Shown: positions 37,509 to 62,757 of the stretch, in pieces | Position numbering within the stretch: position 1 is the stretch's first letter | How the letters are laid out: each line of letters begins with the position of its first letter | NCBI GenBank assembly: GCA_964187785.1 | Contig: OZ076409.1 | Span: 44,208,001 to 44,272,000 of the forward strand | Direction of reading: 5' to 3' | Source: Amphiscolops sp. MND2022 | Taxonomy: Eukaryota | Length of the DNA: 64,000 bases | Position numbers and translations under genes: made by a program | Notes under the pieces: model-generated | The model's input: the letters and a program-made list of their open reading frames with translations, nothing else | Told to the model about the DNA's origin: nothing | Database searches by the model: none

Positions 37509-39111
37509 ACCCATGTGATAATCGGTTTCCTGTCTGTTTTCGTTCATTTTAATTGTATCATCTATGGTCTCATTTACAACTCCAAAAGGAGTTGACGGCT
37601 GCCTTAGTTCATATATTTCTGAAGACTGAAAGCGATTATCGTGATTTGTGTCTTTATCGATTTCATTATTTGATGCGTGTTTTCTCCTGAGAGACTTGTT
37701 TTTTTTTGAATTTGAAGTAGTATGTCTATTGTTCTCAGCATCCTCTTCACCATTTGCTAAATTGCTGCCTCTATTTGTGCTGATTTCTTTGAGTATCTCT
37801 TCGAATTTACTATTCAGCTGTTGTTCAATTTGTGTCATTTTTTGGCTGTTTGGCTCAGACAATCTCTGGGTTATTGCCTTTATCTCATTACTGACTTGCG
37901 AAGTTTCTGTTAGTTCGCTACCTGTCAAAAATGTTATTACCATTTTCAGAAACATCAACTAAAATCGCATTACCTTGAGTGAATTATGTTTCTGAAGCAT
38001 TTTCGTCTCTGTCTGATTACTGAGATTCTACTCTCCTTGACGGTCTATTTCTCCTGTTTCCCATGATGAAATCAGTGCTGAGTGCGAAAATCTTTGAATT
38101 ACAAAGGTAATTGGGTGAAATGAAATCTAGATGTTGTCTTTACATTGAAAGAAAACTGCAGAGCTCAGGGAATGTGGGTTGTTTGTGAAATTGAGTCACT
38201 GCGCTGTATGTGTGTTTTTTGTTGAATGATCGTTCGAAAATGGTTTTTAAGGGTCTCTCCTCAAATGATTCCATTGGGTGAGATTTGTAGTAGCATGACC
38301 ATCAATTTTATCCAAATCAACTCAACGTCTTATTTCAAGCGTCAGAAGTTAAGAATACATCATTTCGTCATGCCCCTAGAAAGTGTAAATATAGCACTGC
38401 AATAACGGCGGATTAATGCGGCATAAAATGCAATTTATTCTGTTTGTTGTTATAATTCCGCATATACTGTCTAATGAAAAGAGCATATTGCAGTATAAAG
38501 GACTAGCGTCACCTTACAGATTTCCGTTATGCTGATCTCACTCTTAATCATCATACTGTTTTGCTGATGTTTCTGCATAGGCCACATAATACATCATAAT
38601 ATGCTGGCACCAGTGTGAGTGATCATTATGCTGTTTTCGATAAAGGTCATCATGCTGTTATGGTAGAATTTCCGCATACTATAACTTAGAGTGTATGCAT
38701 GACTTCACCTGCAGATGTTATGCTGTTTTTCAATGCAAATCGCATAATGCAGTATAATTTGTAAGCACAATGTATGTGACTTTGTTATGCTTCATCCTGA
38801 GTGTATCATTATACTGTTTTCAAGCGTTTTCCGCATAATTGCGGTATGTGTGTTCTATTACTACAAGGGAAATACAAATGCACCAAATGTGTCTTTATAT
38901 CGCTAATTTCTGCAATAAAACAAGGATTGGGTTCGTTTCGGGCAACGGTTTTGTTGCTCTTTTGTTGTTTTTAATTGATTCACGCACTTTTCCTTTTCCA
39001 AGGTTTTTAACAACAAGAAAGGCAACAAAGTTAACACAAAGAAGAACCTCAACATTTACAAATGCTATCAAAATCGTTGGCTCCTAATGACGACAAAGAA
39101 TACAATATTCA

Positions 39112-39884
39112 TGTAACGGCAAGCTCTGGTACAGCAATATCAACCGATTTTGCAACTTTGACATGTTCAGAAATTTTGTCAAAAATTCTAACCCGATGTG
39201 TGACGTGGCACTGAGCATGTGATTGCTCTTTTCGCTGTTTCCACGAAATTGGCAGGTACTTCGAATACAAAGAGCAAGAACGAGCAAAAATACGGGCGCG
39301 CCGCCATGACAGAAGCCAGAGACGGCAAGAACATCCAAAAATAGACTCTTTTTGAGGTGCTAACACCGGTTTTATCGATTTTCAGCATTATGCTACCCTA
39401 TGTAGCGGAAACCGTAAAAATGAGTCTTTTCGCCTAAAGATCCTTGTTTGGTGCTTGGAGCCCCTGCGCCCCAGCTTTTTAGCTGTGTGGTTTGCCATAT
39501 TCGTGCCTGTTTTCATGTATTTTCAGTGATTTTGGCTGTATTCAGTAGCGTTAGCGCTAGTTTAGATCTTATTCCCCAATTTTAGATCTTATTCACATGT
39601 CACCCTGGAACTGGAAATTTACCTTATTCTTGGCATTGTTTTTATATGCTAGTTAAGCGGTGGTCTTTAGAGAGTCAGAAAGATGCCCGTTACTATTAGC
39701 AATCAAAGACTAGGACCGGTTGGACAGTATTCGTCGAAGCACCCGCGACCCCGGGACGTATTTCACCCCTGGAGGCAAAATGGATCTGTGGCGATGGGCG
39801 CCTGTCCCGAGCGATTCACCCATTCCTGCAGGTTCCTCCACCTCTGTTAACGCGTTAAGCGACCAATAACTGCTTGCCGTTACA
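39112..39884 (+). repeat. 5' LTR
   Basis: 13 bp terminal inverted repeat TGTAACGGCAAGC...GCTTGCCGTTACA; about 9 substitutions against the 3' LTR by eye. Confidence 0.97.
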
Positions 39885-39899
39885 TGAGACCTCATTTTT

Positions 39900-39916
39900 T
39901 GGCGACCACAGAGGGA
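39900..39916 (+). promoter_or_regulatory. Primer-binding site, probably tRNA-Arg(TCG)
   Basis: TGGCGACCACAGAGGGA resembles the complement of the 3' end of animal tRNA-Arg-TCG (from recall). Confidence 0.65.
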
Positions 39917-42900: not shown

Positions 42901-44394
42901 GTGCATCAATCCGGAAATGCTGTATACCTTCCAGCACGCTACAACCCTGGGAACTTATTTCGACGCTTCTCGGACGTGCATATTCATTGTGTCTGTTAGA
43001 GGTCTCACCGAGACGAAAACAGGGAAAGTGAGAAAAAGTCATTTCTACGTGTTGGAAACCTGCGGAAACCCCTAGTTTGAACTCCCAGCAGTTAGTTCAT
43101 TGCTGTGCGTGTGATATTTGATCAGTATCGAGTGGGCTGCCTTGCTGGATCATAGCATTTTGTTACTTGAAGTTGTGATATCCTGTGTATGGTAACGAAT
43201 TGGATCATTTTTTCGGAGTTGTCGGCGCACCTTATTGGGAAGTTGGGATTACATTGCCCTGGACTATTCTTATTAGTGTCATTTGGTGCACCGTTGCTGA
43301 AAAAGTGAGCTCGAGAGCTCAACACTGTGGACGAGAGTCTTTGATTGCATGTGAAAAATAGTGTCAATCGAAACACGGTGATACGGAACGTCCGTACCAG
43401 ATCTAAATCTCACCCGGTGGTCTGAATTCTCATTGGTTGCTACTGTAGTGTAGCTGGCTATACGTGTGATCGCGTGACCAATTTTGAGCCCGATACCACG
43501 TTTCCAGCACTTGTAAAAGCCATCTGAGTGATTTTCGAAAAAAGTTGAAAAATCCTAAAATAGTTGAAAAAGGCTCTAGCTTAGAGCTGGAGGTAATTAT
43601 CAGCTACGGAAGGTTATTTTTCTGACTTATGTGGCTGACAAATTGTGCTGTGTCATTTTGTACCCAGTACGATTGATAAAACCGAATTTGACTCTGTTCA
43701 GACACACGTCTTGAACAAAATTCAAAAAAACGCCAGAAAAACTATCAGTGTAAACTTTCAAGACTTCCGCTGTACAGGAGGCAAACCCAAAAAGCCTTCT
43801 TTTTCCAACGGAAGGGACCCAATAGACCTTCCTGGGTGCAAACGAGGCAAATCCCACGGTTCAAAAAAATTGCCGGCAGGGGTCATAAATTTTGGACTCC
43901 TCTGGAACTTTGAAATTTGATCCTGAACAGTTCAAGGCAGCAGTTTCAAGTGCCTGCGAGGCGCTCTGGACTACACTTTTCCAAACGAAAATCTCTAGGA
44001 GTTACCTTGAGCAGGGTTTTCGATATCCAAAAGAGACCCTGAGTGTTCCGACTTAGCCAAAATCACGAAATTGTGAGAGGAGCAACTTCCTAGTGACAAT
44101 AATTTGACCGGATTGCCCGAGCGTATCACCTTTTTGAACGCTCTGGTGCCTCATTTTGGTGTTATTCCGCTGTATCGAGTAGCATCAACGCCGAATATTA
44201 CGCCAAATTTGCAGAGAACTCTTTTGGGCAATTGCAAAATACCCAAATCTCTTGAGGTTGAGAGGTCGACAAACCGCTCGACTGTCTGTTCGGTGCGCAC
44301 TATCCAACTTGGCTGCAGTAATTTGCTCTAGAGCAAAATTTTCTAGTCCACTGAGCAGCCTGCAAAGTGTTGAGCAGTTTTCAGCACGCTGTGA

Positions 44395-46119
44395 TTGCTA
44401 GAAATTCTCTTGACTTTGACCCTGACACTGAACTTGGGTACACAGGTTGGTCTGGCGATGCAGTTCGGAACCTCTAAAGCTAAAATTAAACATGGGAAAT
44501 TCTCCCGCCGCCTCCGTTCCTTTTTTAAAGGGGAAAGGAGTGTCAGTGCAGCACAACCAATGGATGTTCATGATGTTCAACCTCAAAATGAATCCCAAAT
44601 GGTAGATGAACATGACCGATCGACGAAGTCAGAGGATTTGAACTTGAAAGATTGGCCTTTGGAGGATAGTTTCAAACCTGTCTCCAATTTTCTAGACACA
44701 ATGCCATCTAACTCTCAGGATACCGAGCCGGAGAGGAGCATGAGGACTCCCAGTCCTAGTTCAGTATGGTCGTCAAAAGGATCTCTCCATGAAACCAGTA
44801 TTCAGATTTATCAGAAACAGGACCAAAAATTAGAGGCCCTGGAGCAGCAGATGGATGAGATGTCAATCTTTTTGGCACAAGGCACACTTCGCAGGGAGAA
44901 ACTGCTAGCACAAATGCAGTCGATAAATGCAGAAGTACAGGCACACCTCACAAATGCCGATATCAATGTTTCAAACGACGTCAAATCAGAACCATTGACA
45001 CCGCCATTAAAAGACATGGAGGTGGACCCAATATCTTTGGACACTACAACCATGGGTATTGCTGACACTTTGCCTGAATATCACGCCGATGATAATGGGT
45101 TGCGCGAGCGCAACCTCTACTCAAGTGATACGAAGAATGAACGAATATCTCTCTCATCCTCCATTTCCTTATCGCAGGATTCTTTAAGCAACTCTCACTT
45201 CTCTGGAACAAAGTCCCTAATATCAACTACGAAGTTGCTACCGAGTTTGCTGAAAGACTCCTTTGAGCCACATTCTGCTACATCTAACGCTGGAATGAAA
45301 CCTTCGGAAAAATTCCAACGCCACTGCTTCCTTTTGAAGGGGGGAGAGGGCACCAGCGCAGCACAACCAATCGATGAACCGGCCTCGATATCTTCGAACA
45401 ACGCAACCATGGGCATGGCTCACACGTTGCCAGAGGATCACGTTGTTCGAGGCAGGTTGCTCGAGAGCAATCATGGTACTGATGACCCAAAAGATGAATT
45501 GATATCTCCAGAAAAATTGAAATTCACGGAGGCGATATTCAAAGCCATGGCTAAAGAGTTGGCTCCCTTGATTGCCAATCGTGATCAAACCGCTGTTCGA
45601 CCAACCTTATACAGAGGTTCGAAAGACGGGACTGTTGAAGAGTGGTTGCTCGTGATGAAACGGTATTTGGAGCGAGTTTATTCCAATGCTTCTCCTGTCG
45701 ACAAGGCCTGGGCGATAATCGATCACTTAGGTGATGATGCTCGGAGTTTTATAATCAACAAACCGGAGTCCGAACGGGATTCTCAGGAGAAGGTGACTAC
45801 CTTGCTCTCCAGCAGATTTGGGACTGGGAGTAGCCGCTGGCCAGTGAGGCAGGCTTTCAGGTTGCGAAATCAACTTGAAAGAGAGGATCTGATGCAATAT
45901 CTAGATGCATTGGAGGTTCTGAGGAGTCAGGGTTTCCCTGATGAGCCTATCACTACCCGACGCTATGAAATCTTGCATCGGTTCATGGACGGGGTCAGCG
46001 ATCCCGTGTTGCAACGAGAACTGACGGTGGTGTTTGCGACAGAGGCGTATTTAGCCGACCCACCTACCGTGGAGTCACTTCGATTCACAGTACAGGAACT
46101 CCAAAGGAGTCGTCACTAA
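44395..46119 (+). CDS. Gypsy Gag-like ORF (likely start ATG 44458)
   Basis: Capsid-like YRGSKDGTVEEWL...AFRLRNQ...RFMDG; same frame as pol, separated by one TAA. Confidence 0.85.
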   Translation: MLEILLTLTLTLNLGTQVGLAMQFGTSKAKIKHGKFSRRLRSFFKGERSVSAAQPMDVHDVQPQNESQMVDEHDRSTKSEDLNLKDWPLEDSFKPVSNFLDTMPSNSQDTEPERSMRTPSPSSVWSSKGSLHETSIQIYQKQDQKLEALEQQMDEMSIFLAQGTLRREKLLAQMQSINAEVQAHLTNADINVSNDVKSEPLTPPLKDMEVDPISLDTTTMGIADTLPEYHADDNGLRERNLYSSDTKNERISLSSSISLSQDSLSNSHFSGTKSLISTTKLLPSLLKDSFEPHSATSNAGMKPSEKFQRHCFLLKGGEGTSAAQPIDEPASISSNNATMGMAHTLPEDHVVRGRLLESNHGTDDPKDELISPEKLKFTEAIFKAMAKELAPLIANRDQTAVRPTLYRGSKDGTVEEWLLVMKRYLERVYSNASPVDKAWAIIDHLGDDARSFIINKPESERDSQEKVTTLLSSRFGTGSSRWPVRQAFRLRNQLEREDLMQYLDALEVLRSQGFPDEPITTRRYEILHRFMDGVSDPVLQRELTVVFATEAYLADPPTVESLRFTVQELQRSRH

Positions 46120-46182
46120 CAACAGCCTCGTGACCCAGGGTGCACCGAGACTGTACCTTACCAGTGCCTACAGAGCGACCAA

Positions 46183-49100
46183 ATGCCGGGGTCACCAATG
46201 GCTCCGCAGTATGAATCGCTGCCACCCCTTGCACGCCGGTCGGCGCGATTGCCGATGCCGGCTGCGTCAGTACACACAACCCCTGAATACAGACAGACAG
46301 CAACCTTAGAGCAATCCGCGCGCTGCTTGCAGAGTGCTTGCGCGAGACGCAAGCTGGTGGTGCATCGCCCGGAGCATATTCTTGACCCACATGGTGAGTT
46401 CCAGCAAGGTGCTGCAGCAGCGGTTCCAGCGCCTGCTGTCCCAGTGAAATCGTGCACAACTGAGGTGTCTGCAGGTTGTCCAACATTATCAATCCAGTCA
46501 GAAACTTCCAGCCCTAGGGCTGAAGAAAAGAAGAAAACGGATGCAACGCAAACCCTGTCTACTGCCTCTGGCAGGGTATTAATGCTACGTCCAGCTGACC
46601 AAGCCACCGTAAATGCTCCATTGACTGTCACCTGTGGCACAAAGCAGGTGCAGACAGGTTTGGAGTCCACAACGTTTGACCCTAGTGGCCGGATTTTTTT
46701 GTCTGTACACCTAGTGCTGGCCTCGGAGCAACAAATACGCCCAGATTTGACTTTGGAAAAATTGAAGCTGGAGTTAGCTAGCAACCCGGCTGTTAAGAGG
46801 ATCTCTTTGCCACTGCCAAAGGAATGGTACACTGAAGGCGAAGCTAGCACATGCACGGCATACTCGCCAGTTCCTCTGCATGCCAACGTAGATGGCGTGG
46901 ACATGAAATTTGATGCTAGCGTGGTAGTAGATGTGTTCCCTCAAGGAGTGTGTCTAGGGCCACATGAATTACGCTGCTATAGCATCAGCAAGCAAGAGCC
47001 CACAGGTGAGGCCCGCATAGATGAGCGTGCGTCGCTCGTAGTATCTTTTGCAGTGCCAGATGCCAACCCTATTCCACTGAGAGGAATGGTCGACACGGGG
47101 TCAGGCGTAACAATCATGAGTTTCTCAGCCTTCAACCGTGTAGCCTTGCGGACAGGTGTAGCGCTACAACCTTATCGAATCGACTTGTATGCTGCTAATG
47201 GGAAGACGATGAAAACATTTGGAATAGCGGAGCGTGTGCGCTTCCAACTTGGTGGATATGAACTCGAAACAAATTTTGTGGTCGTTGATGACGCACATGG
47301 CTTGGGAGATTTCTTGCTGGGTCGGAATTTCCTGAGAGCATATAACGTGCTCGTAGATCTGACCGCCATGAAAATAGTGGTGCGAGCCCCGGCTAAGCAC
47401 GTGTGGCATCACGCACACGCCCAGACGAGTGACGAAGCTTTATCCAGTAAAGTAGTTTTGGATCAAGACGTAGTGCTCCAGCCATTTGAACGTGCTGTTT
47501 TACGAGCTAAGTTGGTCACTTCGAACTTGGAAGCTTTTGCTTTCAGTAATCTTGTGATTAACTTTGCAACACCGAACCGATTGCTGAAGAACACTATATT
47601 CGTGGAAGACACTATAGCCACTGTTGGAGAGACAGGTTCGTTCTATGTCTCTGATGGCAATCTGACAAGCAATGCCCAGAAAGTGAAGTGCGGAACCATG
47701 CTTGGTACTGCTGCGCCAGTACGCCTAGTCTACCATGCAGTCCCCCAATGTGCGCTAGCGCACAAAGGCGAGAGTGACAAAAAACCGGACTCCCCAAATG
47801 AGTTCGTCAACAGGGTCTATTCTGAAATGGACCTGAACTCGCATTCAAAATGTTCGTCGTCGTCGGAGTTCGAGTTTCTCTCCTCTACAGACCCATCGGA
47901 GGAGGGGTTGTCAGAGCGCGAGATCAGAAAGCGCACTGACCCTGATCTCTTGGCCCCTATTCCTGGACCCGAATCTCAGTTAGAGGAGGTACAGAAGTTG
48001 TGGGGACAGACTGCCCGCGACTCGCTGAACAACATCCTAACGGAATTTGATGACCTATTCATGAAGCACAAAGCAGACATTGGTCGCTGCACAATAGCCA
48101 AGCATCCTGTTGAGTTGGAGCCTGGGGCTGTACCGCATCGTGAAGGTGCTCGTAGAATGTCTCCTGACAAGGCGGAGCGTGCCAATCAGGAGGTACGCAA
48201 TCTCTTGACTTTGGGCATGATCCAACCTTCGCTGTCACCTTGGGCGAGTGGAATTGTGATGGTAAAAAAGAAAAATGGGGAGTTGCGGTTCTGCTGCGAC
48301 TTTCGCCCCCTCAACGCTGTCACAATAAAGGACGCGTATCCCCTCCCACGCATCGATGAAAGCCTTTCACGCTTGGGTAAGGCCAAGATTTACACTAGCA
48401 TTGATTTGTCCTGGGCTTTCTGGCAGATACCAGTGCGCAAAGCAGATAGGCAGAAAACGGCCTTTGCTTGCGAGCTGGGTTTGTTTGAATGGAGACGTAT
48501 GCCCTTTGGGATGTGTAACGCTTCAGCTACTTTCCAGCGAGCCATAGCGCGAGCGCTACGGAAAATTGTGAACCGGGAAGGAAGCACGGTGATGGCGTAC
48601 ATTGACGACATCGTCATTGCTACCGAGACAGTCGAGGACCACATGGTACGCTTACGCGAGGTATTTGAATGTCTGCGCGAAGCTGGCTTCAAAATGAGAG
48701 TCGCTAAGTGCGACTTTATGAAGTCGGAAATCAAGTACCTGGGACGTGTGGTCTCTGCCGAAGGTATCAAACCTGATACTAAAGCAGTGGCAAAACTACG
48801 CGATTGGGAAGTACCGAGGAACAAAACAGAGATGCAAAGCTTTTTGGGCTTCGCCAACTATTATCGAGAGTTCATTCCTTGGCATGCCAAGCTTGTGGCC
48901 CCCTTGCATGCTATTACTGGCCTGGGCGTAACTTTCGCCTGGGGGGATGAGCAGCAACAGGCTTTCAACGCCGTCAAATTGGCTTTGATTGAGGCAACTG
49001 CCTTGGCGCAACCGGACTCGGAGGGCGAATTTGTGCTGGACACTGATGCCAGTGCTGTTGCAATTTCCGGCATTTTGCATCAGTGGCAGGGTCCTCCGGG

Positions 49101-49464
49101 CGAAAGGCGCCTGAGACCAATTGTGTATGGTAGCAAGAAGTTGAATGCCACTCAAGCGAAGTATGGCGCTCCCAAGCTTGAAATGTACGCAGCTTATTAT
49201 TTCATCTTGAAGAATCACAGTTATCTCTGCTCAAGAAAGTTCATCCTTCGGGTTGACAATCAAGCTCTCTCTTGGCTCAAAACGTATTCCATTGATCAGG
49301 CCTTAATTGGACGATGGATTATGGCACTCGAGAAGTACCATTTCAAAGTGGAGCATCGTCCTAGGACACAGCATAGGAATGCTGATGGTCTCAGTAAACG
49401 AACCAATGATTATCGGTGGCGAGAGAAGCAGCTCGAGAAGCTGCCAGCTGTAACGGACAAATAG
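46183..49464 (+). CDS. Gypsy Pol: protease, RT, RNase H
   Basis: VDTGSG (47092), SPWAS, CDFR, MPFG, YIDD (48598), DTDAS, NADGLS. Confidence 0.95.
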   Translation: MPGSPMAPQYESLPPLARRSARLPMPAASVHTTPEYRQTATLEQSARCLQSACARRKLVVHRPEHILDPHGEFQQGAAAAVPAPAVPVKSCTTEVSAGCPTLSIQSETSSPRAEEKKKTDATQTLSTASGRVLMLRPADQATVNAPLTVTCGTKQVQTGLESTTFDPSGRIFLSVHLVLASEQQIRPDLTLEKLKLELASNPAVKRISLPLPKEWYTEGEASTCTAYSPVPLHANVDGVDMKFDASVVVDVFPQGVCLGPHELRCYSISKQEPTGEARIDERASLVVSFAVPDANPIPLRGMVDTGSGVTIMSFSAFNRVALRTGVALQPYRIDLYAANGKTMKTFGIAERVRFQLGGYELETNFVVVDDAHGLGDFLLGRNFLRAYNVLVDLTAMKIVVRAPAKHVWHHAHAQTSDEALSSKVVLDQDVVLQPFERAVLRAKLVTSNLEAFAFSNLVINFATPNRLLKNTIFVEDTIATVGETGSFYVSDGNLTSNAQKVKCGTMLGTAAPVRLVYHAVPQCALAHKGESDKKPDSPNEFVNRVYSEMDLNSHSKCSSSSEFEFLSSTDPSEEGLSEREIRKRTDPDLLAPIPGPESQLEEVQKLWGQTARDSLNNILTEFDDLFMKHKADIGRCTIAKHPVELEPGAVPHREGARRMSPDKAERANQEVRNLLTLGMIQPSLSPWASGIVMVKKKNGELRFCCDFRPLNAVTIKDAYPLPRIDESLSRLGKAKIYTSIDLSWAFWQIPVRKADRQKTAFACELGLFEWRRMPFGMCNASATFQRAIARALRKIVNREGSTVMAYIDDIVIATETVEDHMVRLREVFECLREAGFKMRVAKCDFMKSEIKYLGRVVSAEGIKPDTKAVAKLRDWEVPRNKTEMQSFLGFANYYREFIPWHAKLVAPLHAITGLGVTFAWGDEQQQAFNAVKLALIEATALAQPDSEGEFVLDTDASAVAISGILHQWQGPPGERRLRPIVYGSKKLNATQAKYGAPKLEMYAAYYFILKNHSYLCSRKFILRVDNQALSWLKTYSIDQALIGRWIMALEKYHFKVEHRPRTQHRNADGLSKRTNDYRWREKQLEKLPAVTDK

Positions 49465-49518
49465 AATTTCCTCTCACAGGAGGAGTTTGACCAGCTGCCC
49501 GTTGCACCTTGATTCGAT

Positions 49519-51204
49519 TTGCATGGTCGGGTGATACCCAATCACCCCCAATTGCCCGCTCACTTGCGGAACACTAAACCAGACCCCACAAATGCAGTTT
49601 GTCGTGTTGCACGACGGCGTAAGCGCCGTCAGGCCGCTGAGGAAAGGGAGAGGGCGCTACGCGCTCCTCTACCTGAGGCACCAGTGCCAACATTGCAAAC
49701 TCACGAAGACTTCTATCCAGATTATCCTGAGGACTGGATTGACGTCACTGAAGAGGCTAGGCAAGATTACTTGCTGCCTACACATGTGGCAAATATCCCC
49801 TCACGCATGACATATGCCCTTGACGAAACAGTGGAGCAAGCCATGGCTTCCGCTCCAATGGTGGTTAGGCAAGCTGCCCTAGCCATCAAAGACTTAGACA
49901 CGGAACTTCATGAACATGCCAACACGGTGCATGGCATCAAGGATCTGCTTTTGGCACAGAATCGTGATGTGCATGTGCTAGCCATAAAGAAGTTGGTAGC
50001 ACAAGAGTCTATTGATCATGACATTTTTCCTGAAGACGTGGCTGCGTTCGCACGTAACTATTACAAGCAGAAAAAAGATCTCCTGTTTGTGAACCAAAAT
50101 GGAATTCTTTGTGTTGAGTATCCACCTCAGCAACGTCCACTGCACGAACGTCCGTGCATGATTGTAATGCCACAATTGTACCAGCATGAAATTTTGTTTC
50201 GTGCTCATGATGCCATGGGCCACCAAGGCATTGCAAAGGTGGTTTCGCGAATCCAAGAACGCCACACCTGGCCAGGTATTCGCCGCAGTGTTGGTCAGTA
50301 CGTGAGTCAGTGCCTCACGTGCCAGCAAGTACGTGACAGGCCGGGTGACGTTCGATTTCACTTGAAAAATATCCAAAGTGGGTATTTCAATGAGTTAGTC
50401 CAGTATGACCATCTAAAAATATGCCCCTCCGATAACAATAACACCGGCATATTGGTGATAATTGACCATTTCTCCAAGTTTGCGGAGGCTGTACCCTGCA
50501 GCCATGAGGATTACGATGCAGTGACCACGTCTAGGTTGCTTTTGCAGAAATGGTTTGCCAGACACGGGACGCCTACGCGGATGCAATCAGACAATGCCCC
50601 CAACTTGACTGCAGAGGTATCCAATGAGTTCATGAGGGCATCTCAGGTCACAAAAGTTACCTCTACGGCGGGTCATCCGCGCACCCAAGGCCTGGTTGAA
50701 CGACAAAATCGGACTTTGCTGACTTTGTTGCGGGTATTTTGCTCGCGTCGCATGAGAGATTGGGACCAGCATTTGGATGAAGTCATGGGAGCGTATAACT
50801 CAACGCGCCATGCCACGACTGGGTTTTCACCCTACATGCTGACCCGAGGGACCGAAAAGGCTATTCCTCTCACCTATCTGTATCCGGAGTTCGCAGCCAG
50901 ATCATTTGAATCGCATGGAGCTTATGTGGAGCATGTTCTTGCTCGCCAGCAAGAGATTCATGACTTGGTGCGTAGAAACACGCATCAGGCGCAACAACGT
51001 CAGAAGCTAAAGTACGATCGAGCTATTCGTGCAAACGCATACAATGTGGGAGACCCCGTTTGGGTATTCTGCCGCTATGTGCCTCAAAAGGGATCACCGA
51101 AGTTGATGAGAGCTTGGCATGGTCCGCACAAGGTTGTCCATGTACTACAAGATGGCCGCGTGTATATCCTGGACTCAGGAAAAAAGTGCACTTTGAGCGG
51201 CTGA
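49519..51204 (+). CDS. Gypsy integrase
   Basis: H-x4-H...CLTC zinc motif; YDH, SDNA and VER catalytic D,D,E; WHGPH (GPY/F-like). Same frame as pol after stops at 49462 and 49510. Confidence 0.95.
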   Translation: MHGRVIPNHPQLPAHLRNTKPDPTNAVCRVARRRKRRQAAEERERALRAPLPEAPVPTLQTHEDFYPDYPEDWIDVTEEARQDYLLPTHVANIPSRMTYALDETVEQAMASAPMVVRQAALAIKDLDTELHEHANTVHGIKDLLLAQNRDVHVLAIKKLVAQESIDHDIFPEDVAAFARNYYKQKKDLLFVNQNGILCVEYPPQQRPLHERPCMIVMPQLYQHEILFRAHDAMGHQGIAKVVSRIQERHTWPGIRRSVGQYVSQCLTCQQVRDRPGDVRFHLKNIQSGYFNELVQYDHLKICPSDNNNTGILVIIDHFSKFAEAVPCSHEDYDAVTTSRLLLQKWFARHGTPTRMQSDNAPNLTAEVSNEFMRASQVTKVTSTAGHPRTQGLVERQNRTLLTLLRVFCSRRMRDWDQHLDEVMGAYNSTRHATTGFSPYMLTRGTEKAIPLTYLYPEFAARSFESHGAYVEHVLARQQEIHDLVRRNTHQAQQRQKLKYDRAIRANAYNVGDPVWVFCRYVPQKGSPKLMRAWHGPHKVVHVLQDGRVYILDSGKKCTLSG

Positions 51205-53555
51205 AACCTCATCATGGTGGCCCTACGGAGTTTGTTGCGCTTCCCTCGGGGAGTGGCGAAGTGGTTGTCGTCATGGATCCTGAGCCTGAGCACTCTGCTG
51301 AGGAGATCCGAGATGACTGCTCACAACCCTCGTATCGCGAGGAAGAACCGCTCTCTGAAGCATCAGATGTATCGCTACCATCAAGGAGACGCCACTGGAT
51401 GGACACCAGGTTGCGTACTAGAATGCGAGCTGGAGGCAGTCGTCTCCACTATCAGCAATTTGACTGTTCCAGTTCCGACCCAGAGCGTTCGCGCTCTGAC
51501 GACTTGCTGTCAGATGCCCGAGATCATTCCCAGGCAGAACCTCCGGCGCTATTCGAAGCTTCAATGCCTCCCGATGAACAACCTCGGTCATTTGAACCTG
51601 CCAATGACTACGAGCTTCCATTTTTATCCGAATCCGAAGTTATTCCGGAAATACCTCAATCGCAAGATAATCCCGTTGCAACTGGAGAAGCCGAAGTATC
51701 ACTAGCGGGTACATCTGCTCCTCTGTTGACGAATCCTACATTGACGGATGTGCCAATTAGTATTCCCCAATTGCCGAATGGTACCTCCAACCTCCAAAAC
51801 ACTGAAACCCGTGACACCGAGTTATCCAACACCAACGAGCCAACTGCTCGGAACAATGTCCCTAGCAAGCGTGGCAGGGGCAGATCGCGAGCTGCTTTAT
51901 CTCGTTGTTCGACACGAGCACCAAATTCCCGGTCGCAGAACGTGAGCGTGCGCGCTCAAAGGACTCCCAGTCGCAGAGGACGTCCACGAGGACGACCTCC
52001 TCGGAGGCCACGAGGACACACTATTTCTTCACGGCAAACAGCTCGTGAAATTGACACACAGCCATCAATTACATCGGATTCTGACTCTGATGCGCCCACC
52101 GCGCAGCTTACAACCGATGTTGACCAAGGCGCAACGCAGGTTAACCCACACTATGGCTTACGCCGGAATCGAGTACCTCGATATCGATGTGGAACCTGTG
52201 GGTTCCGCGATTGCACTTGTGTCATGGCTCTGAACAAATCGCCCACTATCCCACTTGGACCTGTGAAAGCTCCGGTGGATCCAAAGCCTCAACCTTTTAT
52301 CCACAATGGTAAGCTTCTTGTCAGTCGCGTTGTCATCCGCGCAGAGAAGACATACACCGGACTAGAAAGAGAACGTATCTTCCCTGTAGACGTCGTGCTG
52401 GAAGAATTATCTAAATCCAAGATTGCTGAGGAACCTTGTCCCCGCTTCAAGGAGTGGACAAGCGATCTCCGTGGATTGGAATTCACACTTGCCGTCACAG
52501 TGCCTCCTGTCACTCCTAACATTGTATTTGGACCTTTCAATTATGGGAGGGAACCCATCCAAATGGTCCGCTGTATCACCGCTGACCTCCTATCTGACAA
52601 ATACGGCATCACCTGTCAGCCTGGTGAAGTGTATCGCCCAACCCAATATTGGTGGTTGCTTGTAACTGCCCCACATGCTCACTCTTTGGTCCAGCCTGAC
52701 AGCTTGCGGAGCTGTCTAGAGAGTTTACGGACTGTTGTCACTGAGGAACTCATTTTGTGCTTCCACATCGTCGATCTTTATCGTGGAAAACTACGGTTCC
52801 GATGGTGGCCAGAGCTGATTATCACTTTGTTCGCCAGCTTCCCTCGTATCCGCCTTTTGGATGATTGGACCCATTCCTTCACCGAGCCTGTAACGATCCA
52901 CACTGCACTTGGTATCCTGGATTCATGGTCAACAGCAAATGTGGATAATCAGTCCCTGTCGAGGTCCGTATGGCAGGATCTATCTGCTATTCGTGGACAG
53001 AACCATATAGACCCAGCTGATGAAAAAGGTCCCGGACGTCAGATTGTGTTTCCTGGTGCCCTACGACCAAATTTGGTCGACTACATTGTTTACGACCAAA
53101 CTGATATCTTGCAGGTGCAGGGCCACGTAGCAATTTGCTGCCCTGCAGACCTTGATACCAATTCTGCTGCCTTGCGCTACATTCTTCGCGAGTGTGGCAG
53201 CGACAAAATATTCCAACTTCGCCCAACAGTTGGTGAAGTCCTAACTATCCCATCCTCATTGTCTTTTATGGATAATCAAGTTATTCACCTAATGATAACA
53301 CGCCCCTCCCAGCGTTCACCACAAATCACCGATGACTTTGTCTTATGCTTGGAGCACTTGAAAGCTTCACTATTGTCCAACGAAACCCCTGATATTCATT
53401 TCCCCATAGTGGACCCTGAACGCCCACTTCGCAGTTTGGACAATTTTTATCATAGTGTCATGGACGTTTTTGCAGGAACTGATATCACTGTATTTCTGCA
53501 TGATCGCGTCTATGTCTCCATTGCCAGTATTGAACAATTTCCTGGCATCACTTAG
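51060..53555 (+). CDS. Frameshifted integrase C-terminal extension: low-complexity linker, CxxC-x4-CxC motif, two TARG1/OARD1-like macrodomains
   Basis: KVHFERLK continues integrase in the -1 frame at the A6 run 51180-85; macro-like blocks at ~52518-52860 and ~53082-53504. Confidence 0.75.
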   Translation: MGILPLCASKGITEVDESLAWSAQGCPCTTRWPRVYPGLRKKVHFERLKPHHGGPTEFVALPSGSGEVVVVMDPEPEHSAEEIRDDCSQPSYREEEPLSEASDVSLPSRRRHWMDTRLRTRMRAGGSRLHYQQFDCSSSDPERSRSDDLLSDARDHSQAEPPALFEASMPPDEQPRSFEPANDYELPFLSESEVIPEIPQSQDNPVATGEAEVSLAGTSAPLLTNPTLTDVPISIPQLPNGTSNLQNTETRDTELSNTNEPTARNNVPSKRGRGRSRAALSRCSTRAPNSRSQNVSVRAQRTPSRRGRPRGRPPRRPRGHTISSRQTAREIDTQPSITSDSDSDAPTAQLTTDVDQGATQVNPHYGLRRNRVPRYRCGTCGFRDCTCVMALNKSPTIPLGPVKAPVDPKPQPFIHNGKLLVSRVVIRAEKTYTGLERERIFPVDVVLEELSKSKIAEEPCPRFKEWTSDLRGLEFTLAVTVPPVTPNIVFGPFNYGREPIQMVRCITADLLSDKYGITCQPGEVYRPTQYWWLLVTAPHAHSLVQPDSLRSCLESLRTVVTEELILCFHIVDLYRGKLRFRWWPELIITLFASFPRIRLLDDWTHSFTEPVTIHTALGILDSWSTANVDNQSLSRSVWQDLSAIRGQNHIDPADEKGPGRQIVFPGALRPNLVDYIVYDQTDILQVQGHVAICCPADLDTNSAALRYILRECGSDKIFQLRPTVGEVLTIPSSLSFMDNQVIHLMITRPSQRSPQITDDFVLCLEHLKASLLSNETPDIHFPIVDPERPLRSLDNFYHSVMDVFAGTDITVFLHDRVYVSIASIEQFPGIT

Positions 53556-54670: not shown

Positions 54671-55443
54671 TGTAACGGCAAGCTCTGGTACAGCAATATC
54701 AACCGATTTTGCAACTTTGACATGTTCAGAAATTTTGTCAAAAATTCTAATCCGATGTGTGACGTGGCACTGAGCATCTGATTGCTATTTTCGCTGTTTC
54801 CACGAAATTGGCAGGTACTTCGACAACAAAGAGCAAGAACGAGCAAAAACACGGGCGCGCCGCCATGACAGAAGCCAGAGACGGCAAGAACATCCGAAAA
54901 TAGACTCTTTTTGAGGTGCTAACACCGGTTTTATCGATTTTCAGCATTATGCTACCCTATGTAGCGGAAACCGTAAAAATGAGTCTTTTCGCCTAAAGAT
55001 CCTTGTTTGGTGCTTGGAGCCCCTGCGCCCCAGCTTTTTAGCTGTGTGGTTTGCCATATTCGTGCCTGTTTTCATGTATTTTCAGTGATTTTGGCTGTAT
55101 TCAGTAGCGTTAGCGCTAGTTTAGATCTTATTCCCCAATTTTAGATCTTATTCACATGTCACCCTGGAACTGGAAATTTACCTTATTCTTGGCATTGTTT
55201 TTATATACTAGTTAAGCGGTGGTCTTTAGAGAGTCAGAAAGATGCCCGTTACTATTAGCAATCAAAGACTAGGACCGGTTGGACAGTATTCGTCGAAGCA
55301 CCCGCGACCCCGGGACGTATTTCACCCCTGGAGGCAAAATGGATCTGTGGCGATGGGCGCCTGTCCCGAGCGATTCACCCATTCCTGCAGGTTCCTCCAC
55401 CTCTGTTAACGCGTTAAGCGACCGATAACTGCTTGCCGTTACA
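54671..55443 (+). repeat. 3' LTR
   Basis: Direct copy of 39112-39884; preceded by GGGGAGTGA. Confidence 0.97.
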
Positions 55444-58400
55444 TCAACTAAACACATTTATAAAATGCGCATAAAAGTTTGTGAAAACGTTTGAAAGTTC
55501 ACAATCTTTGAAACATGAGGATTAGCTTCTGTGTACCCCTGGGCTTAGGTACCTCATGATTAGGTGCAGGAAGTTGATCTGCTCACCTGTGCTGCACCCC
55601 GGACATCTCGCAAGGGTAGCTTGCCGACAACCCATGTTAAAAGTGTTCAAGCCTAAAGGATATAAACGTCCTGAAAAGCCTTCTGTCCTTTTTGCAAGAT
55701 GCATCAGTTGAGGACAAAATAACTTTCCGCGGCCAAAACTTTCAAATGGTGAACCTCAACTGTCAGCACATTAGATAGGGTGCTTTTTTACTTTGTCAAT
55801 GTGAAAATTTGAAGAGAAAAGTAAATAGAGAATAATGTTTTGCTGAGGTGGACTAAGAAGCCCATGGATTGTGCGAATAGTTTTCAAGGTTTATCAGAAA
55901 TTTTTCAAACTTGAAAAACCTTTTTTTGAAATTTATTGTGAAATAACTATATTTTTTCGCGGGAAAACCTTCTTGTTCATCTTTCGAAGGGTTTATGAGT
56001 CTGTAGAATGCATCGGACTCCCTTGTCAATCGATCATTCGAAAAATTTGACAATATTGCTGAAGGCTTTCTTTACAGTTAAGCTTTCTAAATTTGCAGTT
56101 TGAAAGATTCTGGAGGATTCACTGAATATTTTGTGTTTTAAGTACACTCAGTGTAAAAACCTCCAAGACAAGTTTCATGAAGGTACACATTCATGACGTG
56201 ACAAGTTTCCTGTCAGGGTTGAGCATATTTGACAACTGTAAAGGTATGGTTCTTCATTGACCTCGGTGTTCAGTTTGCGTCGATTTAATCTGTTACGAAA
56301 TTGTCTGCAGCTTCTGCTGCTGTTCATCATAATTTCCGCTAAGGGGAGCCACTCCCGAAAAAAAGTTTTCCCGATTTCCGCTGCATGTCTTTCTTCGTAG
56401 CTAACTTACCACACGATTTTTTCAATGGCACATTTTCATCTTCGAGGGTTTTTGTCAGAAAAAACACTTGTAATTCTAATGATAACTCGTTAGGTCGAAC
56501 TACTTTTCGGAGCCTTTTCGAGTTGAGAGGCTTATAAAATTGATTTTAGCATATTTGAGTTAGCATCGTCCATTGAAGTAATATAAGCTTAAACTAAACT
56601 TTCTTTCTCAACCGTATCGCTGTGAGTCAGGTCTTGGCACCAAAATTCTTTTCTTGCGTAGAAAGGTTTTATAGTTTCAATTGTAATAACAATAGTAACA
56701 GTATTTAAAAATTTTATAGTAACGATCTCTGATGCTGCCTTATTAGTTGCAAGACTGCAATATGTTTACTATTGTTTTTAAATGCAGAATTTGAAATGTT
56801 TTTTTCTTTTTTTTTGTTTGATGAAAGTCTCCATTCATCCAGCTGCATCGGATAGTTGATAAGGTATTAAAAAAAACAAAGTTTTCACTGGTATGTCGGC
56901 GGCATTGAGTGTTGATTGACAAATTGCAGTGATGTGTCCAATTACCGTCTTTTAAAGAGGCACCAAAAATTGCCTGTAACCTTTTTTACGAAAAAAATAT
57001 GCTGAAAATTATGGTTTTGACAAACAGGACATATGCCACAGTTGTTTCAACATTATTGTCCGTTTTCACAACAATTTTTGAAAAATCCGAGATTAGTTGA
57101 ATTGTTTTTCGTCTTAAAGCGTTGGCTTCATTGAAATGTAGGTACAAGAACTTATGACTTACGTATTCGGTACGTCTTTGATAATGAACGCTCTCTTAAG
57201 TTTTTTTTAAAAGTTCTGTTTCTTCAATGTTGCTTTTGCGAACAGACTTTGTGGTTTGGAACCAGAGGCCTATCCTTGGCTGAGCAACAACAAAATTTTT
57301 TGCTACGTCTTGTGGCGAGACAATATTTGGTTTGTGATACAGGATCGACATACGAAATAGGTAGGGGATATTTTGAGACCCACGGTTAATAACAAGGCTT
57401 GAGACTTCAACGGCCTTGAATATTATCAAACAGTCGCAAAATGCTTCTACTTTGAATTGCAAAACAGTCCGTTGAACGAGGATTGAACTTTATCATAACA
57501 TAAAATAAACATTGAAAACTATTTTTTAAATAATAATTTGCAGTTCAGTTAAGCTAGTCTATACACCAACGAGTAGAATAATGGTTGGTAATACAGGATA
57601 CAGTTAGATGATTTGATTGTTGATAATTTGGAATGTTATTCATCAAAGAATTCATAAATGAAATTCTGAGTACATACACACAGCAAAGTACTAAGACCAA
57701 TATTTCGAAAGGTCTCCGATAAGCCAATCAAATTGCACTCCTTCATTCATCCAGACTGGAGAAACTGAAATTATTTCACTGCACAAAAACAATGTAGCTA
57801 TATTAGAAGTTTGATATAGCGAAATTTTCTTCCCATTAATTTAAAGTTATGAAATCAAACTAAAAGAACGAAGTTGTGAATGTAATTCTGAAACATTTAG
57901 CATTGATGGTCTCTCCTTTTTCATGCCAAAAAACTACTGCATTGAGTTCCTTAGTTTCTGGCGTTTTTATTCGCATTTATGATGGATAACGTCGTTTCTT
58001 TAGGATGTCTTGGACCATTTTTTGCAGCATTTTAATTGTGAAAGTTATTGGTGAAAAAATTCCGAGACGAGAGTTTCATAACACCAATCAAATTGAGTTG
58101 TTATCTCTTGACTTTGGTTCAGTATTATATCAAGACAAATACTTGATGCATGCTTTGAATCAATTGGTTCAAATTCGGGGAATGTCAATTTTTCGACCTG
58201 AAGTCATGGAAATGGGTACACTAGGATCGGTAACTTAATTAAAGTTAATTCAATTATTTAATTTTACTAATTTAAGATCTTTTAATATGCAGCTATTGCC
58301 AGCTTCATAGTAACTGTTGTTTCGGTCGATTTCATGCTATTTTGCAATTCACTTGTCCAGAGTTTCTTGCAAGAGGCAAAACACGAGTTGCTTTCATAGG

Positions 58401-60328
58401 CAATCACATAAACGGAATAAAATTGCCAAAAATTGTACCTGAGAATGAATGACAGATCCTTAATTTTTACAAATCTGCGTTTTTATGGTTTTTGAGTCAT
58501 GGCTCAGAATGAAATTAGAAGGGATGAGTGCTCAGAACCGCTGAATCACCAACAATCATCCTTCTTGGTTTGCAAAAGACGTGAATGAAAACAAGGTTAC
58601 TCTACAATTTTTACGAAATAAGCCGGGAACGGTACTAAAAGATGGCCCGCCTGAGTCATTAAAGAACTGTTTTTTTACCGAAACTCAATCTCATCAAGTA
58701 AACAACAATCAAAAAGGGAAATTCCTTGCGCTTGAAAAAAACTTGATTTCGTTTTTCACGAGTTCTAAATTGCCTAAATTGCTGTTTGAGGAAAACATGT
58801 AGCCTCACAGTGATAAGTGCTGTTCTCTCAATGGAAATTTCATGGGTGGAACAGCAAGTCATAAAGTGCCATAAATGAACCCAAAAACGCAGGAAATTCG
58901 AATATACATATTTTAGGACGTGGGAACCCTTGAAATCACATTGACAAACTGTAAAAACTTTATTGTCATTTCGTCCGGATGCAAAAAAAGAAAAATCACT
59001 TTTTTCACTGTTGTTACCTCTTTTCAAGGTCACCTGTGATTACCATCATGACTTGTAATATTTGGGATGAAAATATTCAGTATGAATGGTATTCTCAAAC
59101 ATAACATGATTGGACAAAAAGTAAAACTCTGAAAATGGAAACACGCGACAAAAAGACGGACAAAATATTCAGGAGGAGGAGAAGAAACCAACTTAGAGAG
59201 AGATAAAATGAGAATGGTAAAGATCTCAAATATATCTCTTGAAGTATAAATCAACGTTCATCCAATATATTCTCATTGTGTAAAAGTGAATATCAAGAGG
59301 TGAATTGAAGCTAACGCTTTCGCCTAGAAACCACTGTGCGCTACTATAAAAAAGTCCTCATTGATAGTTTCATCAACTTCACCAACGCAACAAAAATAAT
59401 CGATTTTGTTGAAATTCAACGATCTCAAAGACTTATTCCATTAATAATGCAACGGAAAAGATCCACGATCGATCAACAACTATAGGAATTGTCGTTTAAC
59501 CACACCGCACAAGCGGAAAACTGAATCAAGAATTTGAATCGTAAAAACGGTTTGTGGCGTAGTTCATGTTGTAGTTTTGTTTTTGGTTTTACCAGAAGAC
59601 AACGTTTTATGCAAACAAGTATATTGATGAAAGACAAAACCTTTTGTTTCCTGGGAGTAAATTTCGACGCGACGCACCACACCAGATTATTCATCAGCTC
59701 GTTCACTACGGCATGGCAACAATTGGAAACCGTTTTAATAGACTTCAAGCCAATTTTGGACAAAAATAGAGAGTGCATACACACATTTGAAGAAGTACTT
59801 GAGTCTGTAGGAAAGTACTTTGATCCCAGTTATATTTTTTTGAAACGTAACCCTTGAAATTCAACGTTCAAAAAAGAATTTATTGTTTAAATTCAATCTG
59901 CAACATTTGTTGAAGTTGTTTTTTGAGCAATACGAGTGGTTTTCGCATAAAAATGTATTCTATTTTGCAACCATATATCCACAACGTTATTTCTGCTTTA
60001 GTAGTTTTTCACTGAAGCAATATCTATGTTTCCTCGTTTTTTAAACAACCAGACAACCGTAGAAACCCAACCAATGCGGTCTTACAGCCCAAAGAGTCAT
60101 GTATATTGGATACAAAGGCCTCCAGAGCAACATTAACAACAACCTCGAGACACCGGTCGTAACATATTTTATCTCCTAACGTATCTTCGGGGCTCAACAT
60201 CTCGCCACCGTGTGCGAACTTCGCATATCTGACTAAAATTTTGAGATCGGAAACAAATCAAACAAATTCGTATATCAACAGTACATTTCGAAATATACAA
60301 ACAACCAAGCGCAAGCAAGAAATTTTTC

Positions 60329-61470
60329 ATGCGAACACTCGTTACAACCGTCGAGTGGAAAACGGAAGAAAAACAATTTTCATCTGCAAAAAGAATTACT
60401 ATAACGATACACAACAGCAGATGGAGAGGACACATTGGTATAACTCGCACTACCGCAAAATTTCGGAAACGTTTCTATTTTCCTAATTTCACCGAAAATT
60501 TCACTGATTATATCACGAACTGTCTCACATGTTTACAAACGAAAGAAGCCAAGCAAGTGTCTCTCAAACCTCCTTTACAACCCGTAGCTTCGGAGAGAAA
60601 TTTCCCAGCAGACACGATGCAAATCGACTTGGTGGGAAAACTACAAGCATCTCCTCATACCTTTGAGTTGACTGCAATAGATGTGTTTTCTCGATACTTG
60701 TTTGCCGTAGCTTTGACAAAAGGAGAATCAGACATTGTTGCCAAAGCCTTGATCAGTATCTTCCTGAGACACGCTTACATTCCACAGATGATTATTTGCG
60801 ATTTGGGAACAACTTTTACTTCCACTCTGATGACTGCTTTGACAGCACAGCTTGACGTCCAGTTAGAATATTGCACTTTGAAGCATGTTCAGTCCATCGG
60901 CTCAGTGGAAAGGAGTCATGGACCATTGAAACACATTCTCAAATTGAATTCAAACGAGAGCTTCACAAATTGGCATAAAGGTTTGGATTTCGCTGTTTTT
61001 TTTTCACAATACAACCTATAATCCATCTATTGGGTACACGCCCTCTAATCTTTTCCATGGACGCCCGCTGAATACTCCATTGGATTTACGATTCCAAAAC
61101 GCAAAAATGAGAACCGCACAAGGAAACTTCGAAGTTTTGCGGGAATTGCAAGATGCAGCCGCTGCATCATTCGAACAGGCTATAGAATCGATGATTGCGG
61201 TTATCATAACTATAGACAATATTACGACAGGAAAGCGAACGCTACACCCTTAGCTCTTCATTCTCACTGCCTAATTCTCGAACCGAAAAGTGTCACACAT
61301 AATGATCCTTTGAGCAAGGGGAAACCGAAATGGCTACCGCTTTATCGTGTTGAAAACGTTCTCACCAACTCGAACTACATTGTCCGCAAAGTTGTCACCA
61401 ACGAAACTCAATGCTTGCACCGAATGCGTCTTAGACCTTGCCAACCTCAATTTGATGTCGAAGACTAGCC
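60329..61470 (+). pseudogene. Decayed integrase of a second gypsy family
   Basis: HNSRWRGH...CLTC, IDLVG, CDLGT, VERSH; frameshifted continuation GYTPSNLFHGR...SNYIVRKV...HRMRLRP. Confidence 0.9.
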
Positions 61471-61857
61471 GTGTATTAATGAGCAAAATTTCGCTCCGGA
61501 TGGCCCTTTGACGAATGAAAATACAGAAACTGAGTTTTTTGACAATGCAATAGTTCAACATATCTTCCAGCAACGGAAGACAGCTTCTGATCCAGGAATT
61601 AACAAAAACAGTCAATTTTCCTCGGAACGTAGTGTCATCACCTTCCAACCTGATTCTTTACCAACAAATCCTATCGAAACAACATCAGAACCAACCCTTC
61701 ACGACTCCATTGACCGTGAATCTTTTGTGGTGGAAGGACATGTCCCAACTCTGATGGAAGACGGCCCGAAGTCATCGACACTACCGATTATCGTATTGAC
61801 AACCCGGACGAAACTTCTTCCGATGATGCGAGATATGGCGCCACTCTGAGGTACGCG

Positions 61858-62757
61858 TTGCGACGCGACGATCGTTTCGCCCTAGCAAGACAGTTCTCAA
61901 TGTATATCTCTATCAGTCACCTGCAGCAACATTTGGAGTCAACATGCAACCCAACGTTTGAGACTGTCTTTTGCATATCGCAATGTTTAGCATTGGAGCA
62001 ACTTCTTCGAATAACCAACACCACACAACCTATTGCATTACTTGAAACCATCAGAAGGGCAGACGTAGGCGACACAATCGTTCGCACCATAGAAGGCAAT
62101 TCCATTATTTCCATTTTAGTAAGGAAGCATGAGCTGTACGGTTTCTCGCTTCTTGCCTCCAGACAAGGGTTGAAGGATGTGAAGACATTTTTGCACCAAC
62201 AAACGAAGAAGCAAGTTGCAAAACAGATGGAACAGTTCCTGAAAACGATTGTCCCAGAAGCATTGAAGATCATTCAATCTGTTTTCGATAATGACACGGA
62301 AGTTCTGTTGGTTCATGGTGAAATACACGCTATCAACGAGCAAGAAGAGGAAGTATCAGTCATACTTCACTTTCCGAACGATGTCGTTGACATAAACCAA
62401 CCTATCGACCCGGATTCAGATTCCGAAATTGAATTCGAGACACTTTTTGACGCAAATGATACTGACAACTTTTCGGACGCCAGTACACTGCCAGCGAACG
62501 ACAGTGATGCAAACGAAGAACAAACGACATTTTTTCACTTCCGAAGCCTGAGGAATTCTATTTCCGACTACTCGAGTTCCAACGAACAACCTTCAATAAG
62601 TCGATCTCCATCTCCACCCCGGAGAATCGTATCTCCAACACAGCTTACCAGCCAAATCAGACAACAGACATTACCGCAAAACACTAGAACAAACAAAAGA
62701 CGGATAGTGCCTTTACTTTTACATCAGAAACTTTACGAATTTGAGTCAACACCCTAG
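61858..62757 (+). CDS. Post-integrase ORF of the second gypsy: degenerate TARG1-like macrodomain plus acidic tail
   Basis: VFCISQCL, VGDTIV, IISILVRK, QGLKDVK, IIQSVF..TEVLLV in macrodomain order. Confidence 0.5.
   Translation: MRRDDRFALARQFSMYISISHLQQHLESTCNPTFETVFCISQCLALEQLLRITNTTQPIALLETIRRADVGDTIVRTIEGNSIISILVRKHELYGFSLLASRQGLKDVKTFLHQQTKKQVAKQMEQFLKTIVPEALKIIQSVFDNDTEVLLVHGEIHAINEQEEEVSVILHFPNDVVDINQPIDPDSDSEIEFETLFDANDTDNFSDASTLPANDSDANEEQTTFFHFRSLRNSISDYSSSNEQPSISRSPSPPRRIVSPTQLTSQIRQQTLPQNTRTNKRRIVPLLLHQKLYEFESTP

Follow-up and report, generated by a model that had tools for sequence, protein, structure and literature searches.

It is established that viruses counter PARP immunity by means of macrodomains. 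Capture of a macrodomain by retroelements has also been reported, as a preliminary description of the DNA analyzed here had anticipated: teleost epsilon-like endogenous retroviruses carry macro-domain open reading frames (ORFs) (Basta et al. 2009, cited in PMC4977317). Those elements are long terminal repeat (LTR) retroelements like the one described below, but they belong to Retroviridae and not to Gypsy (PMC4977317). In coronaviruses, the nsp3 polyprotein carries Mac1 together with SUD (Mac2/Mac3), and the two SUD macrodomains have G-quadruplexes and not ADP-ribose as ligands (PMC2674928). In chromoviruses, a chromodomain follows integrase, and targeting by this domain has been demonstrated (MAGGY, cited in bioRxiv 2021.11.30.470311); the available text of that preprint covers fusions of chromodomains and PHD domains to elements and mentions no element-macrodomain fusion. 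We found no report of macrodomains in Gypsy elements in the open literature, a scope that leaves Repbase, GyDB, CDD, subscription journals and supplements outside, and a term search of the available text of PMC4299795, PMC4120745, PMC5408684 and PMC12440569 returned no mention of macrodomains. Here we describe a Gypsy-type LTR retrotransposon of 16.3 kb that hosts two C-terminal macrodomains, M1 (52509..52865, + strand) and M2 (53076..53507, +), and lies in a 64,000-nucleotide stretch of the Amphiscolops sp. MND2022 genome (contig OZ076409.1, positions 44,208,001 to 44,272,000, forward strand; hereafter the window).

A Pfam scan gave no Macro domain match on M1 or M2. Against PDB sequences, phmmer matched M2 to OARD1/C6orf130 in five of seven cases at an E value of about 1, and M2 family profiles sharpened this match to 0.006 and 1.7e-4. 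In a two-domain AlphaFold2 model built from 20 alignment rows (mean predicted local distance difference test (pLDDT) score 67), M2 matches human TARG1 (OARD1, C6orf130; PDB 4J5R, 2LGR) with a Foldseek E value of 2.4e-11 and a VIA Z score of 16.6 (root-mean-square deviation (rmsd) 3.3, 140 aligned). M1, modelled alone from 52 rows at pLDDT 86, also ranks TARG1 first (Foldseek E 1.6e-6; VIA Z 11.8, rmsd 2.9, 116 aligned), with DarG, the BT1257-type 2AFC and Poa1p next, within about one Z unit. In the alignment, M1 is about 25 residues shorter, and the helical stretch that follows the second strand is largely missing. On trimmed alignments, hhalign paired M2 with intact TARG1-like domains at E 6e-10, M1 with intact domains at 3.5e-5 and M1 with M2 at 4e-7, and as a lead only, ESM Atlas scored M2 at 0.90 to a Macro cluster. 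Together, the predicted models and profile comparisons confirm that both domains belong to the TARG1/OARD1 (ALC1-like) macrodomain class, M2 as a full-length and M1 as a shortened fold, which bears out the earlier view of M2 as TARG1/OARD1-like and of M1 as a degenerate copy preceding it. Both share with TARG1, their top structural match, the minimal macro fold at approximately 16-20% identity, and a 100/100 split in a macrodomain tree sets M1 and M2 together, which have a D-x-x-R loop in common, apart from 15 intact domains.

The catalytic residues of TARG1 are Lys84 and an acidic residue at position 125, written as Glu125 in PMC7050489 and present as Asp in the PDB chain. We compared these and the glycine loops (G43/I44 and G123) in TARG1 numbering, which is the chain numbering plus six as set from Lys84, across rows that are related and partly fragmentary, so that the counts are descriptive and not independent. 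The Lys84 position of M2 (53295-53306 in the window) holds Arg in 34 of 37 rows, Gly in two and Lys in one, and the G121-C-G123-L-D125 loop has become D-P-E-R-P (53412-53426; Asp in 33, Pro in 26, Glu in 26, Arg in 30 and Pro in 23 of the 37 rows), with Glu at the Gly123 position in 26 of 37; the G41-I44 loop reads mostly N/Y-S-A-A. In M1, the Lys84 position is Ala in 39 or Ser in 11 of 52 rows, the diphosphate loop (D-x-Y-R-G-K in the window) has Asp in 44, Tyr in 39, Arg in 42 and Gly in 47 of the 52, placing Tyr at the Gly123 position, and the G41-I44 loop and helix are mostly deleted. The preliminary description was therefore right that the catalytic Lys of M2 is replaced and that GCGLD is absent. 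Compared to TARG1, M1 and M2 lack the Lys84 and Asp125 pair, both glycine loops are replaced or deleted, M1 is truncated, and the two domains are fused in tandem to a retrotransposon polyprotein.

The TARG1 substitutions G123E, G43E and I44E abolish ADP-ribose binding and activity (PMC5928194). Because most M2 rows naturally carry the Glu of the binding-null G123E protein, and M1 has Tyr there together with a lost loop, the proposal that these domains are non-catalytic ADP-ribose readers becomes doubtful, and to judge from their residues M1 and M2 probably no longer bind ADP-ribose.

In the window copy, the extension that carries the macrodomains (51192..53555, +) spans 788 codons from the last integrase motif to the stop, in agreement with the roughly 780 codons first reported, and comprises a low-complexity linker, basic and cysteine motifs, M1 and M2. 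The M1 and M2 motifs share one open frame (50976-53555, +). That the polyprotein ends in macrodomains does not hold for the window copy itself, in which the extension is out of frame with integrase, but is evident from other copies in which the two are contiguous. One of these encodes protease (PR), reverse transcriptase (RT), RNase H and integrase, followed by M1 and M2, in a single 3,052-codon frame. A search with a distant relative brought up additional subfamilies, and ten of ten copies from four subfamilies end in M1 and M2 within a single gag-pol frame of 3,030-3,330 codons, of which 3,028-3,302 codons fall within the 10-kb stretches that were read, which upholds the tandem post-integrase layout. 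The element is a member of a large young family: searching the 1.07-Gb genome with M2 yielded 3,561 candidates, of which 150 were scored; these are 95-100% identical, and many of them sit in open frames of 2,750-3,060 codons. Between subfamilies, identity is 44-70% for M1, 44-57% for M2, 47-67% for gag and 81-96% for RT.

M1 and M2 are maintained by purifying selection. We computed pairwise Nei-Gojobori ratios of nonsynonymous to synonymous change (dN/dS) on 12 pairs of natural copies, leaving out the ratios of five between-subfamily pairs that are saturated in dS; one within-subfamily pair, nearly without synonymous change, is uninformative, and three within-subfamily pairs share copies. M1 gave 0.050, 0.083, 0.077, 0.072 and 0.117 (five pairs) and M2 gave 0.214 (a pair with six changes), 0.063, 0.124, 0.129, 0.123 and 0.062, compared to 0.14-0.42 for the linker and 0.01-0.19 for RT. 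The conserved, partly helical segment between M1 and M2 (52923..52982, +) gave 0-0.22. This comparison had been set beforehand as a test of neutrality, and with ratios of 0.05-0.2 and both domains present in all four subfamilies, the region is not evolving neutrally. Nor do M1 and M2 show any sign of an arms race, since dN/dS is well below 1 and their divergence is like that of gag.

Relatives of M2 extend beyond this genome. A phmmer search of 1.84 billion representatives returned 276 proteins at E up to 0.001, many of them probably from this or a close genome. The P0170 group of 15 proteins lies outside it (best genome matches 35-37%) and bridges M2 to intact TARG1-like profiles at E 9e-13, with shuffled controls at most 0.3 bits. 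P0257, a cluster member that is likewise outside this genome, has an integrase 50-54% identical to that of this lineage and 23-35% identical to others, with Ty3 as its best integrase match. Behind this one integrase it carries both an intact TARG1-like domain at residues 391-534, which matches OARD1 at E 6e-25 and has Lys as well as Asp, and a dead M2 500 residues further on (1031-1177); an M1 was not detected in this protein. That a dead M2 is retained beside a live domain is an argument that it has a function of its own. With its live domain upstream of the dead M2, P0257 recalls coronavirus Mac1 and SUD, which are likewise tandem polyprotein macrodomains that include members without ADP-ribose binding, a loss that for M1 and M2 we infer from sequence. 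By contrast with the coronavirus domains, M1 and M2 are of the TARG1 and not the MacroD class, follow integrase in a retrotransposon and have surfaces that are not basic; with a structural Z of about 7 against SUD chains, we regard the resemblance as convergent.

Other Gypsy families of this genome commonly carry intact TARG1-like domains. Among 150 scored in a Pfam Macro search, 24 were matches, 20 of which translate as TARG1-like domains in retroelement frames, and a further search gave 117 matches. The intact domains lie after integrase (L078, L080), between RNase H and integrase (L081, L181, L182) or between protease and RT (L079, L183, L185). A tree of RT-RNase H built from 14 rows, all unnamed elements, after two short rows were dropped and with a long-branch warning for two, has four lineages that are 24-35% identical; in the three besides the present one, intact TARG1-like domains occupy three positions in the polyprotein. 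These copies may represent independent captures or moves within elements, two histories that the macrodomain tree does not separate. CDD reportedly marks Poa1p-like macrodomains on some insect retrotransposon proteins, and the intact form may thus be known to curators. A candidate for the host TARG1 gene is a 315-codon frame (L180:4057-5001, -) that has intact TARG1 motifs and an additional N-terminal part and is the sole long frame in 9 kb.

How a macrodomain without its pocket would serve the element can be framed as follows. An ancestor of this Gypsy lineage may have captured a TARG1/OARD1 macrodomain behind integrase, and one captured copy would have lost the Lys/Asp pair and the glycine-rich diphosphate loop while gaining the conserved D-x-x-R loop. 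The dead copy would then have duplicated into M1 and M2 in the branch of this genome. Through their folded surfaces, the resulting pseudo-macrodomains would bind a partner from the host or the element and not ADP-ribose. Ahead of M1, the tail holds a basic motif with an RGRP core (51972..52007, +), which we take to be AT-hook-like, and a conserved four-cysteine motif, C-x2-C-x4-C-x-C (52188..52220, +), that is possibly a zinc site; both are kept in four of four subfamilies, as is the GPY/F-like motif of integrase. With these motifs, the tail might tether or escort the nuclear integration complex from the slot that holds the chromodomain in chromoviruses. Across the four subfamilies, M1 and M2 have isoelectric points (pI) of 4.8-7.0 versus 8.6-10 for 12 of 15 intact domains, and this acidic-to-neutral range weakly favours protein over nucleic-acid partners. 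Our tentative preference, which we place somewhat short of an even chance, is a pocket-less interaction module that tethers or escorts integrase.

Several observations weigh against this reading. Tethering depends on the tail staying on integrase after proteolysis, and whereas targeting by chromodomains is demonstrated, tethering by M1 and M2 is conjecture. Nothing points positively to targeting: each of the 13 large contigs has copies of the family, and the 26 target triplets whose duplication is described below show no more than AT-richness. For dN/dS, copies were picked for open frames, the macrodomain tree has long branches, and the integrase tree joins P0257 to this lineage only at 82/69. 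As regards the pocket, 29 of the 33 M2 rows with a residue at the adenine-side Asp position retain the Asp, and in the group outside this genome Gly mostly persists at the 123 position (D/E-P-G-R-G); nucleotide binding may thus not be wholly lost. Moreover, SCO6735 is a hydrolase though it lacks both catalytic residues (PMC7050489).

The dead domains could instead work as a SUD-like module that binds element RNA or structured nucleic acid in packaging, translation or reverse transcription. SUD offers the precedent of a pair of macrodomains with G-quadruplexes as ligands, TARG1 itself binds RNA independently of its pocket (PMC5928194), P0257 has the matching live-plus-dead layout, and gag of the window subfamily is without a CCHC knuckle. 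However, the pI of M1 and M2 stands in contrast to the basic patches that TARG1 uses for RNA, and the subfamilies with knuckles retain M1 and M2 too; we hold this role to be unlikely. Quite unlikely, in our estimation, is a counter-defence decoy, in which the dead folds would mimic host TARG1 or macro readers, sequester partners or poly(ADP-ribose) (PAR) chains and so blunt ADP-ribosylation directed at the element. The intact TARG1-like domains of three other RT lineages, at their three positions, do suggest that ADP-ribosylation pressure is real, the candidate host gene L180 is at hand to be mimicked, and tandem viral macrodomains of which only the first is active are known (PMC10221186). Nevertheless, M1 and M2 show no excess of amino-acid change, mimicry of the TARG1 surface is doubtful because identity to it is only about 20%, and the acidic loop residues would repel PAR.

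The reading first proposed for these domains, in which a non-catalytic ADP-ribose reader targets integration to ADP-ribosylated chromatin, draws on the macro fold, the post-integrase position, the retained adenine-side Asp, a near-invariant Arg in M2 and the precedent of the chromodomain. The natural Glu at Gly123 in M2, the Asp and Pro residues across its diphosphate loop, and the Tyr and deleted first loop of M1 speak against it, and we consider it improbable. An active hydrolase with altered chemistry, relying on the conserved Arg and Asp, could invoke both the activity of SCO6735 without a Lys/acid pair (PMC7050489) and the high conservation of the new residues; with the substrate-binding glycine loops replaced and an intact copy present beside the dead one in P0257, it appears very improbable. 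Finally, a neutral passenger kept merely by lying in the reading frame, for which the absence of M2 from four of four short derivatives might be cited, is largely refuted by dN/dS of 0.05-0.2, below that of the linker, as well as by a C-terminal location at which stops would cost nothing and by retention across subfamilies saturated at synonymous sites and in the outside group, and it has next to no probability left.

We return to the lineage in which this proposed integrase-tethering module would have arisen. The order of its enzymes is protease-RT-RNase H-integrase by Pfam scan, its paired LTRs end in TG..CA as in Gypsy/Metaviridae, and a W-x-G-P motif, read by eye, follows the integrase core in four of four subfamilies, as expected of the Gypsy GPY/F motif. 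Like chromoviruses, it has an extra folded domain after integrase along with the GPY/F-like motif, but the fold differs, and Pfam scans gave no chromo match. LTR elements other than Troyka, Gypsy among them, make target-site duplications of 4-6 bp (Kojima 2025, PMC12440569). The present lineage does not: counting LTR pairs inferred from proximity and leaving out unpaired LTRs, 3-bp duplications with TG..CA termini flank 26 of 29 junction sets (L105-L179), with 4 bp in one and none in two. Within the window subfamily the figure is 16 of 19 testable sets, which include the 4-bp case and the two without duplication, and in the other three subfamilies it is 10 of 10; a single clear control from another family has a 5-bp duplication. 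Troyka shares the 3-bp duplication and the single gag-pol frame, but has CG..CG ends, no GPF/Y motif, a CX2CX8-10HX4C knuckle and LTRs of 100-400 bp (PMC12440569). We rejected membership in Troyka because this lineage has TG..CA ends in all four subfamilies and a GPY/F-like motif; its knuckle, where present, is CX2CX4HX4C and its LTRs are 712-773 bp. Quite apart from the macrodomains, the pairing of a 3-bp duplication with TG..CA ends breaks a rule by which LTR elements are classified and found.

Taken jointly, these observations allow a wider reading, to which we give a rather low probability: hosts may use ADP-ribosylation as a so far unrecognised defence against LTR retrotransposons, TARG1 may have been captured repeatedly by Gypsy lineages in response (between protease and RT, between RNase H and integrase, and after integrase), and one lineage with a 3-bp stagger, unlike other TG..CA elements, may have evolved an nsp3-like array of live and dead domains in which the dead copies became a new integrase-tethering module. 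M1 and M2, together with the intact-looking copies in other families, hint at a link between ADP-ribose signalling and mobile DNA. One genome holds the matched states, namely a candidate TARG1 gene of the host, elements with intact copies at three positions, and dead ones with a natural G123E equivalent under purifying selection. As these domains are small and expressible, two questions become open to direct test: do the macrodomains of elements remove ADP-ribose, and what does a macrodomain without a pocket bind?

The remaining features of the window copy, all on the + strand, are those of a broken element. A TCA target-site duplication (39109..39111, repeated at 55444..55446) flanks a 773-bp 5' LTR with TG..CA ends (39112..39884), followed by a putative primer-binding site, and a 3' LTR (54671..55443) preceded by a polypurine tract; comparison of the LTRs gives 98.8% identity. 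The gag-like frame (44395..46119), named by position, has no Pfam match and closes at an in-frame stop. Protease, RT and RNase H occupy 46120..49464 (Pfam E values: RVT_1 1.7e-36, RT_RNaseH_2 1.5e-22, gag-asp_proteas 1.7e-8), a frame that also closes at a stop, and 49513..51204 hold a spacer along with integrase, in which H2C2, the core and, at 51109-51129, a GPY/F-like motif are recognised. In-frame stops thus end at 46119, 49464 and 49512, and the frame changes near 51180. Between the 5' LTR and gag lies a 4.5-kb leader (39885-44394) with an internal repeat near 40983-41207 and no sense frame of 150 codons. No CCHC zinc knuckle is seen in gag of the window subfamily (44395-46119; L055), which has amplified with open frames, yet gag of the other three subfamilies has one clear CCHC knuckle and a second C-x2-C motif.

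Elsewhere in the family, at least five copies of the window family about 14 kb apart at 34.03-34.11 Mb of contig C1 suggest a tandem array of whole elements. Short derivatives of 6-8 kb (L115/L119, L123/L124, L125/L126, L118/L130) share the LTRs and the last 860 bp with the element, and M2 is absent from the four of four examined. In subfamilies B, C and D, the polyprotein is separated from the 3' LTR by a second ORF, about 1,430 codons long (L166:80-4369, L168:40-4335, L164, L170, L172, L179); it is 29% identical between B and D, absent from the window subfamily and SGNH/GDSL-like by eye only, with no Pfam or PDB match.

Macrodomains also recur in other settings. At L082 (contig C8:38063000-38072999), abundant gag-protease-macrodomain elements of about 835 codons have an intact TARG1-like domain and no RT in frame, with 1.94-kb LTRs and a 5-bp duplication; the related copy L185 runs on into RT. 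P0211, from another source, joins PHD and an intact TARG1-like macrodomain in one protein, the end of which presumably resembles ORF1 of a long interspersed nuclear element (LINE, non-LTR). A second, unrelated Gypsy family lies in the window at 60245-62757 (+; copies L087-L096, L101), with a 1,812-codon pol whose RT groups at 100/100 with L078 and L080. Its post-integrase stretch (61870-62330) is macro-like by eye where L078 and L080 have intact TARG1-like domains, and ESM Atlas scores it 0.90 to a cluster with 11% Macro members; phmmer, hhalign and a local profile gave no macrodomain support, and it is possibly an independent decay of a macrodomain, with the fold unproven. At the other end of the window, three near-identical tandem copies of about 1.2 kb (12935-16516) may reflect a recent duplication or an assembly artefact.

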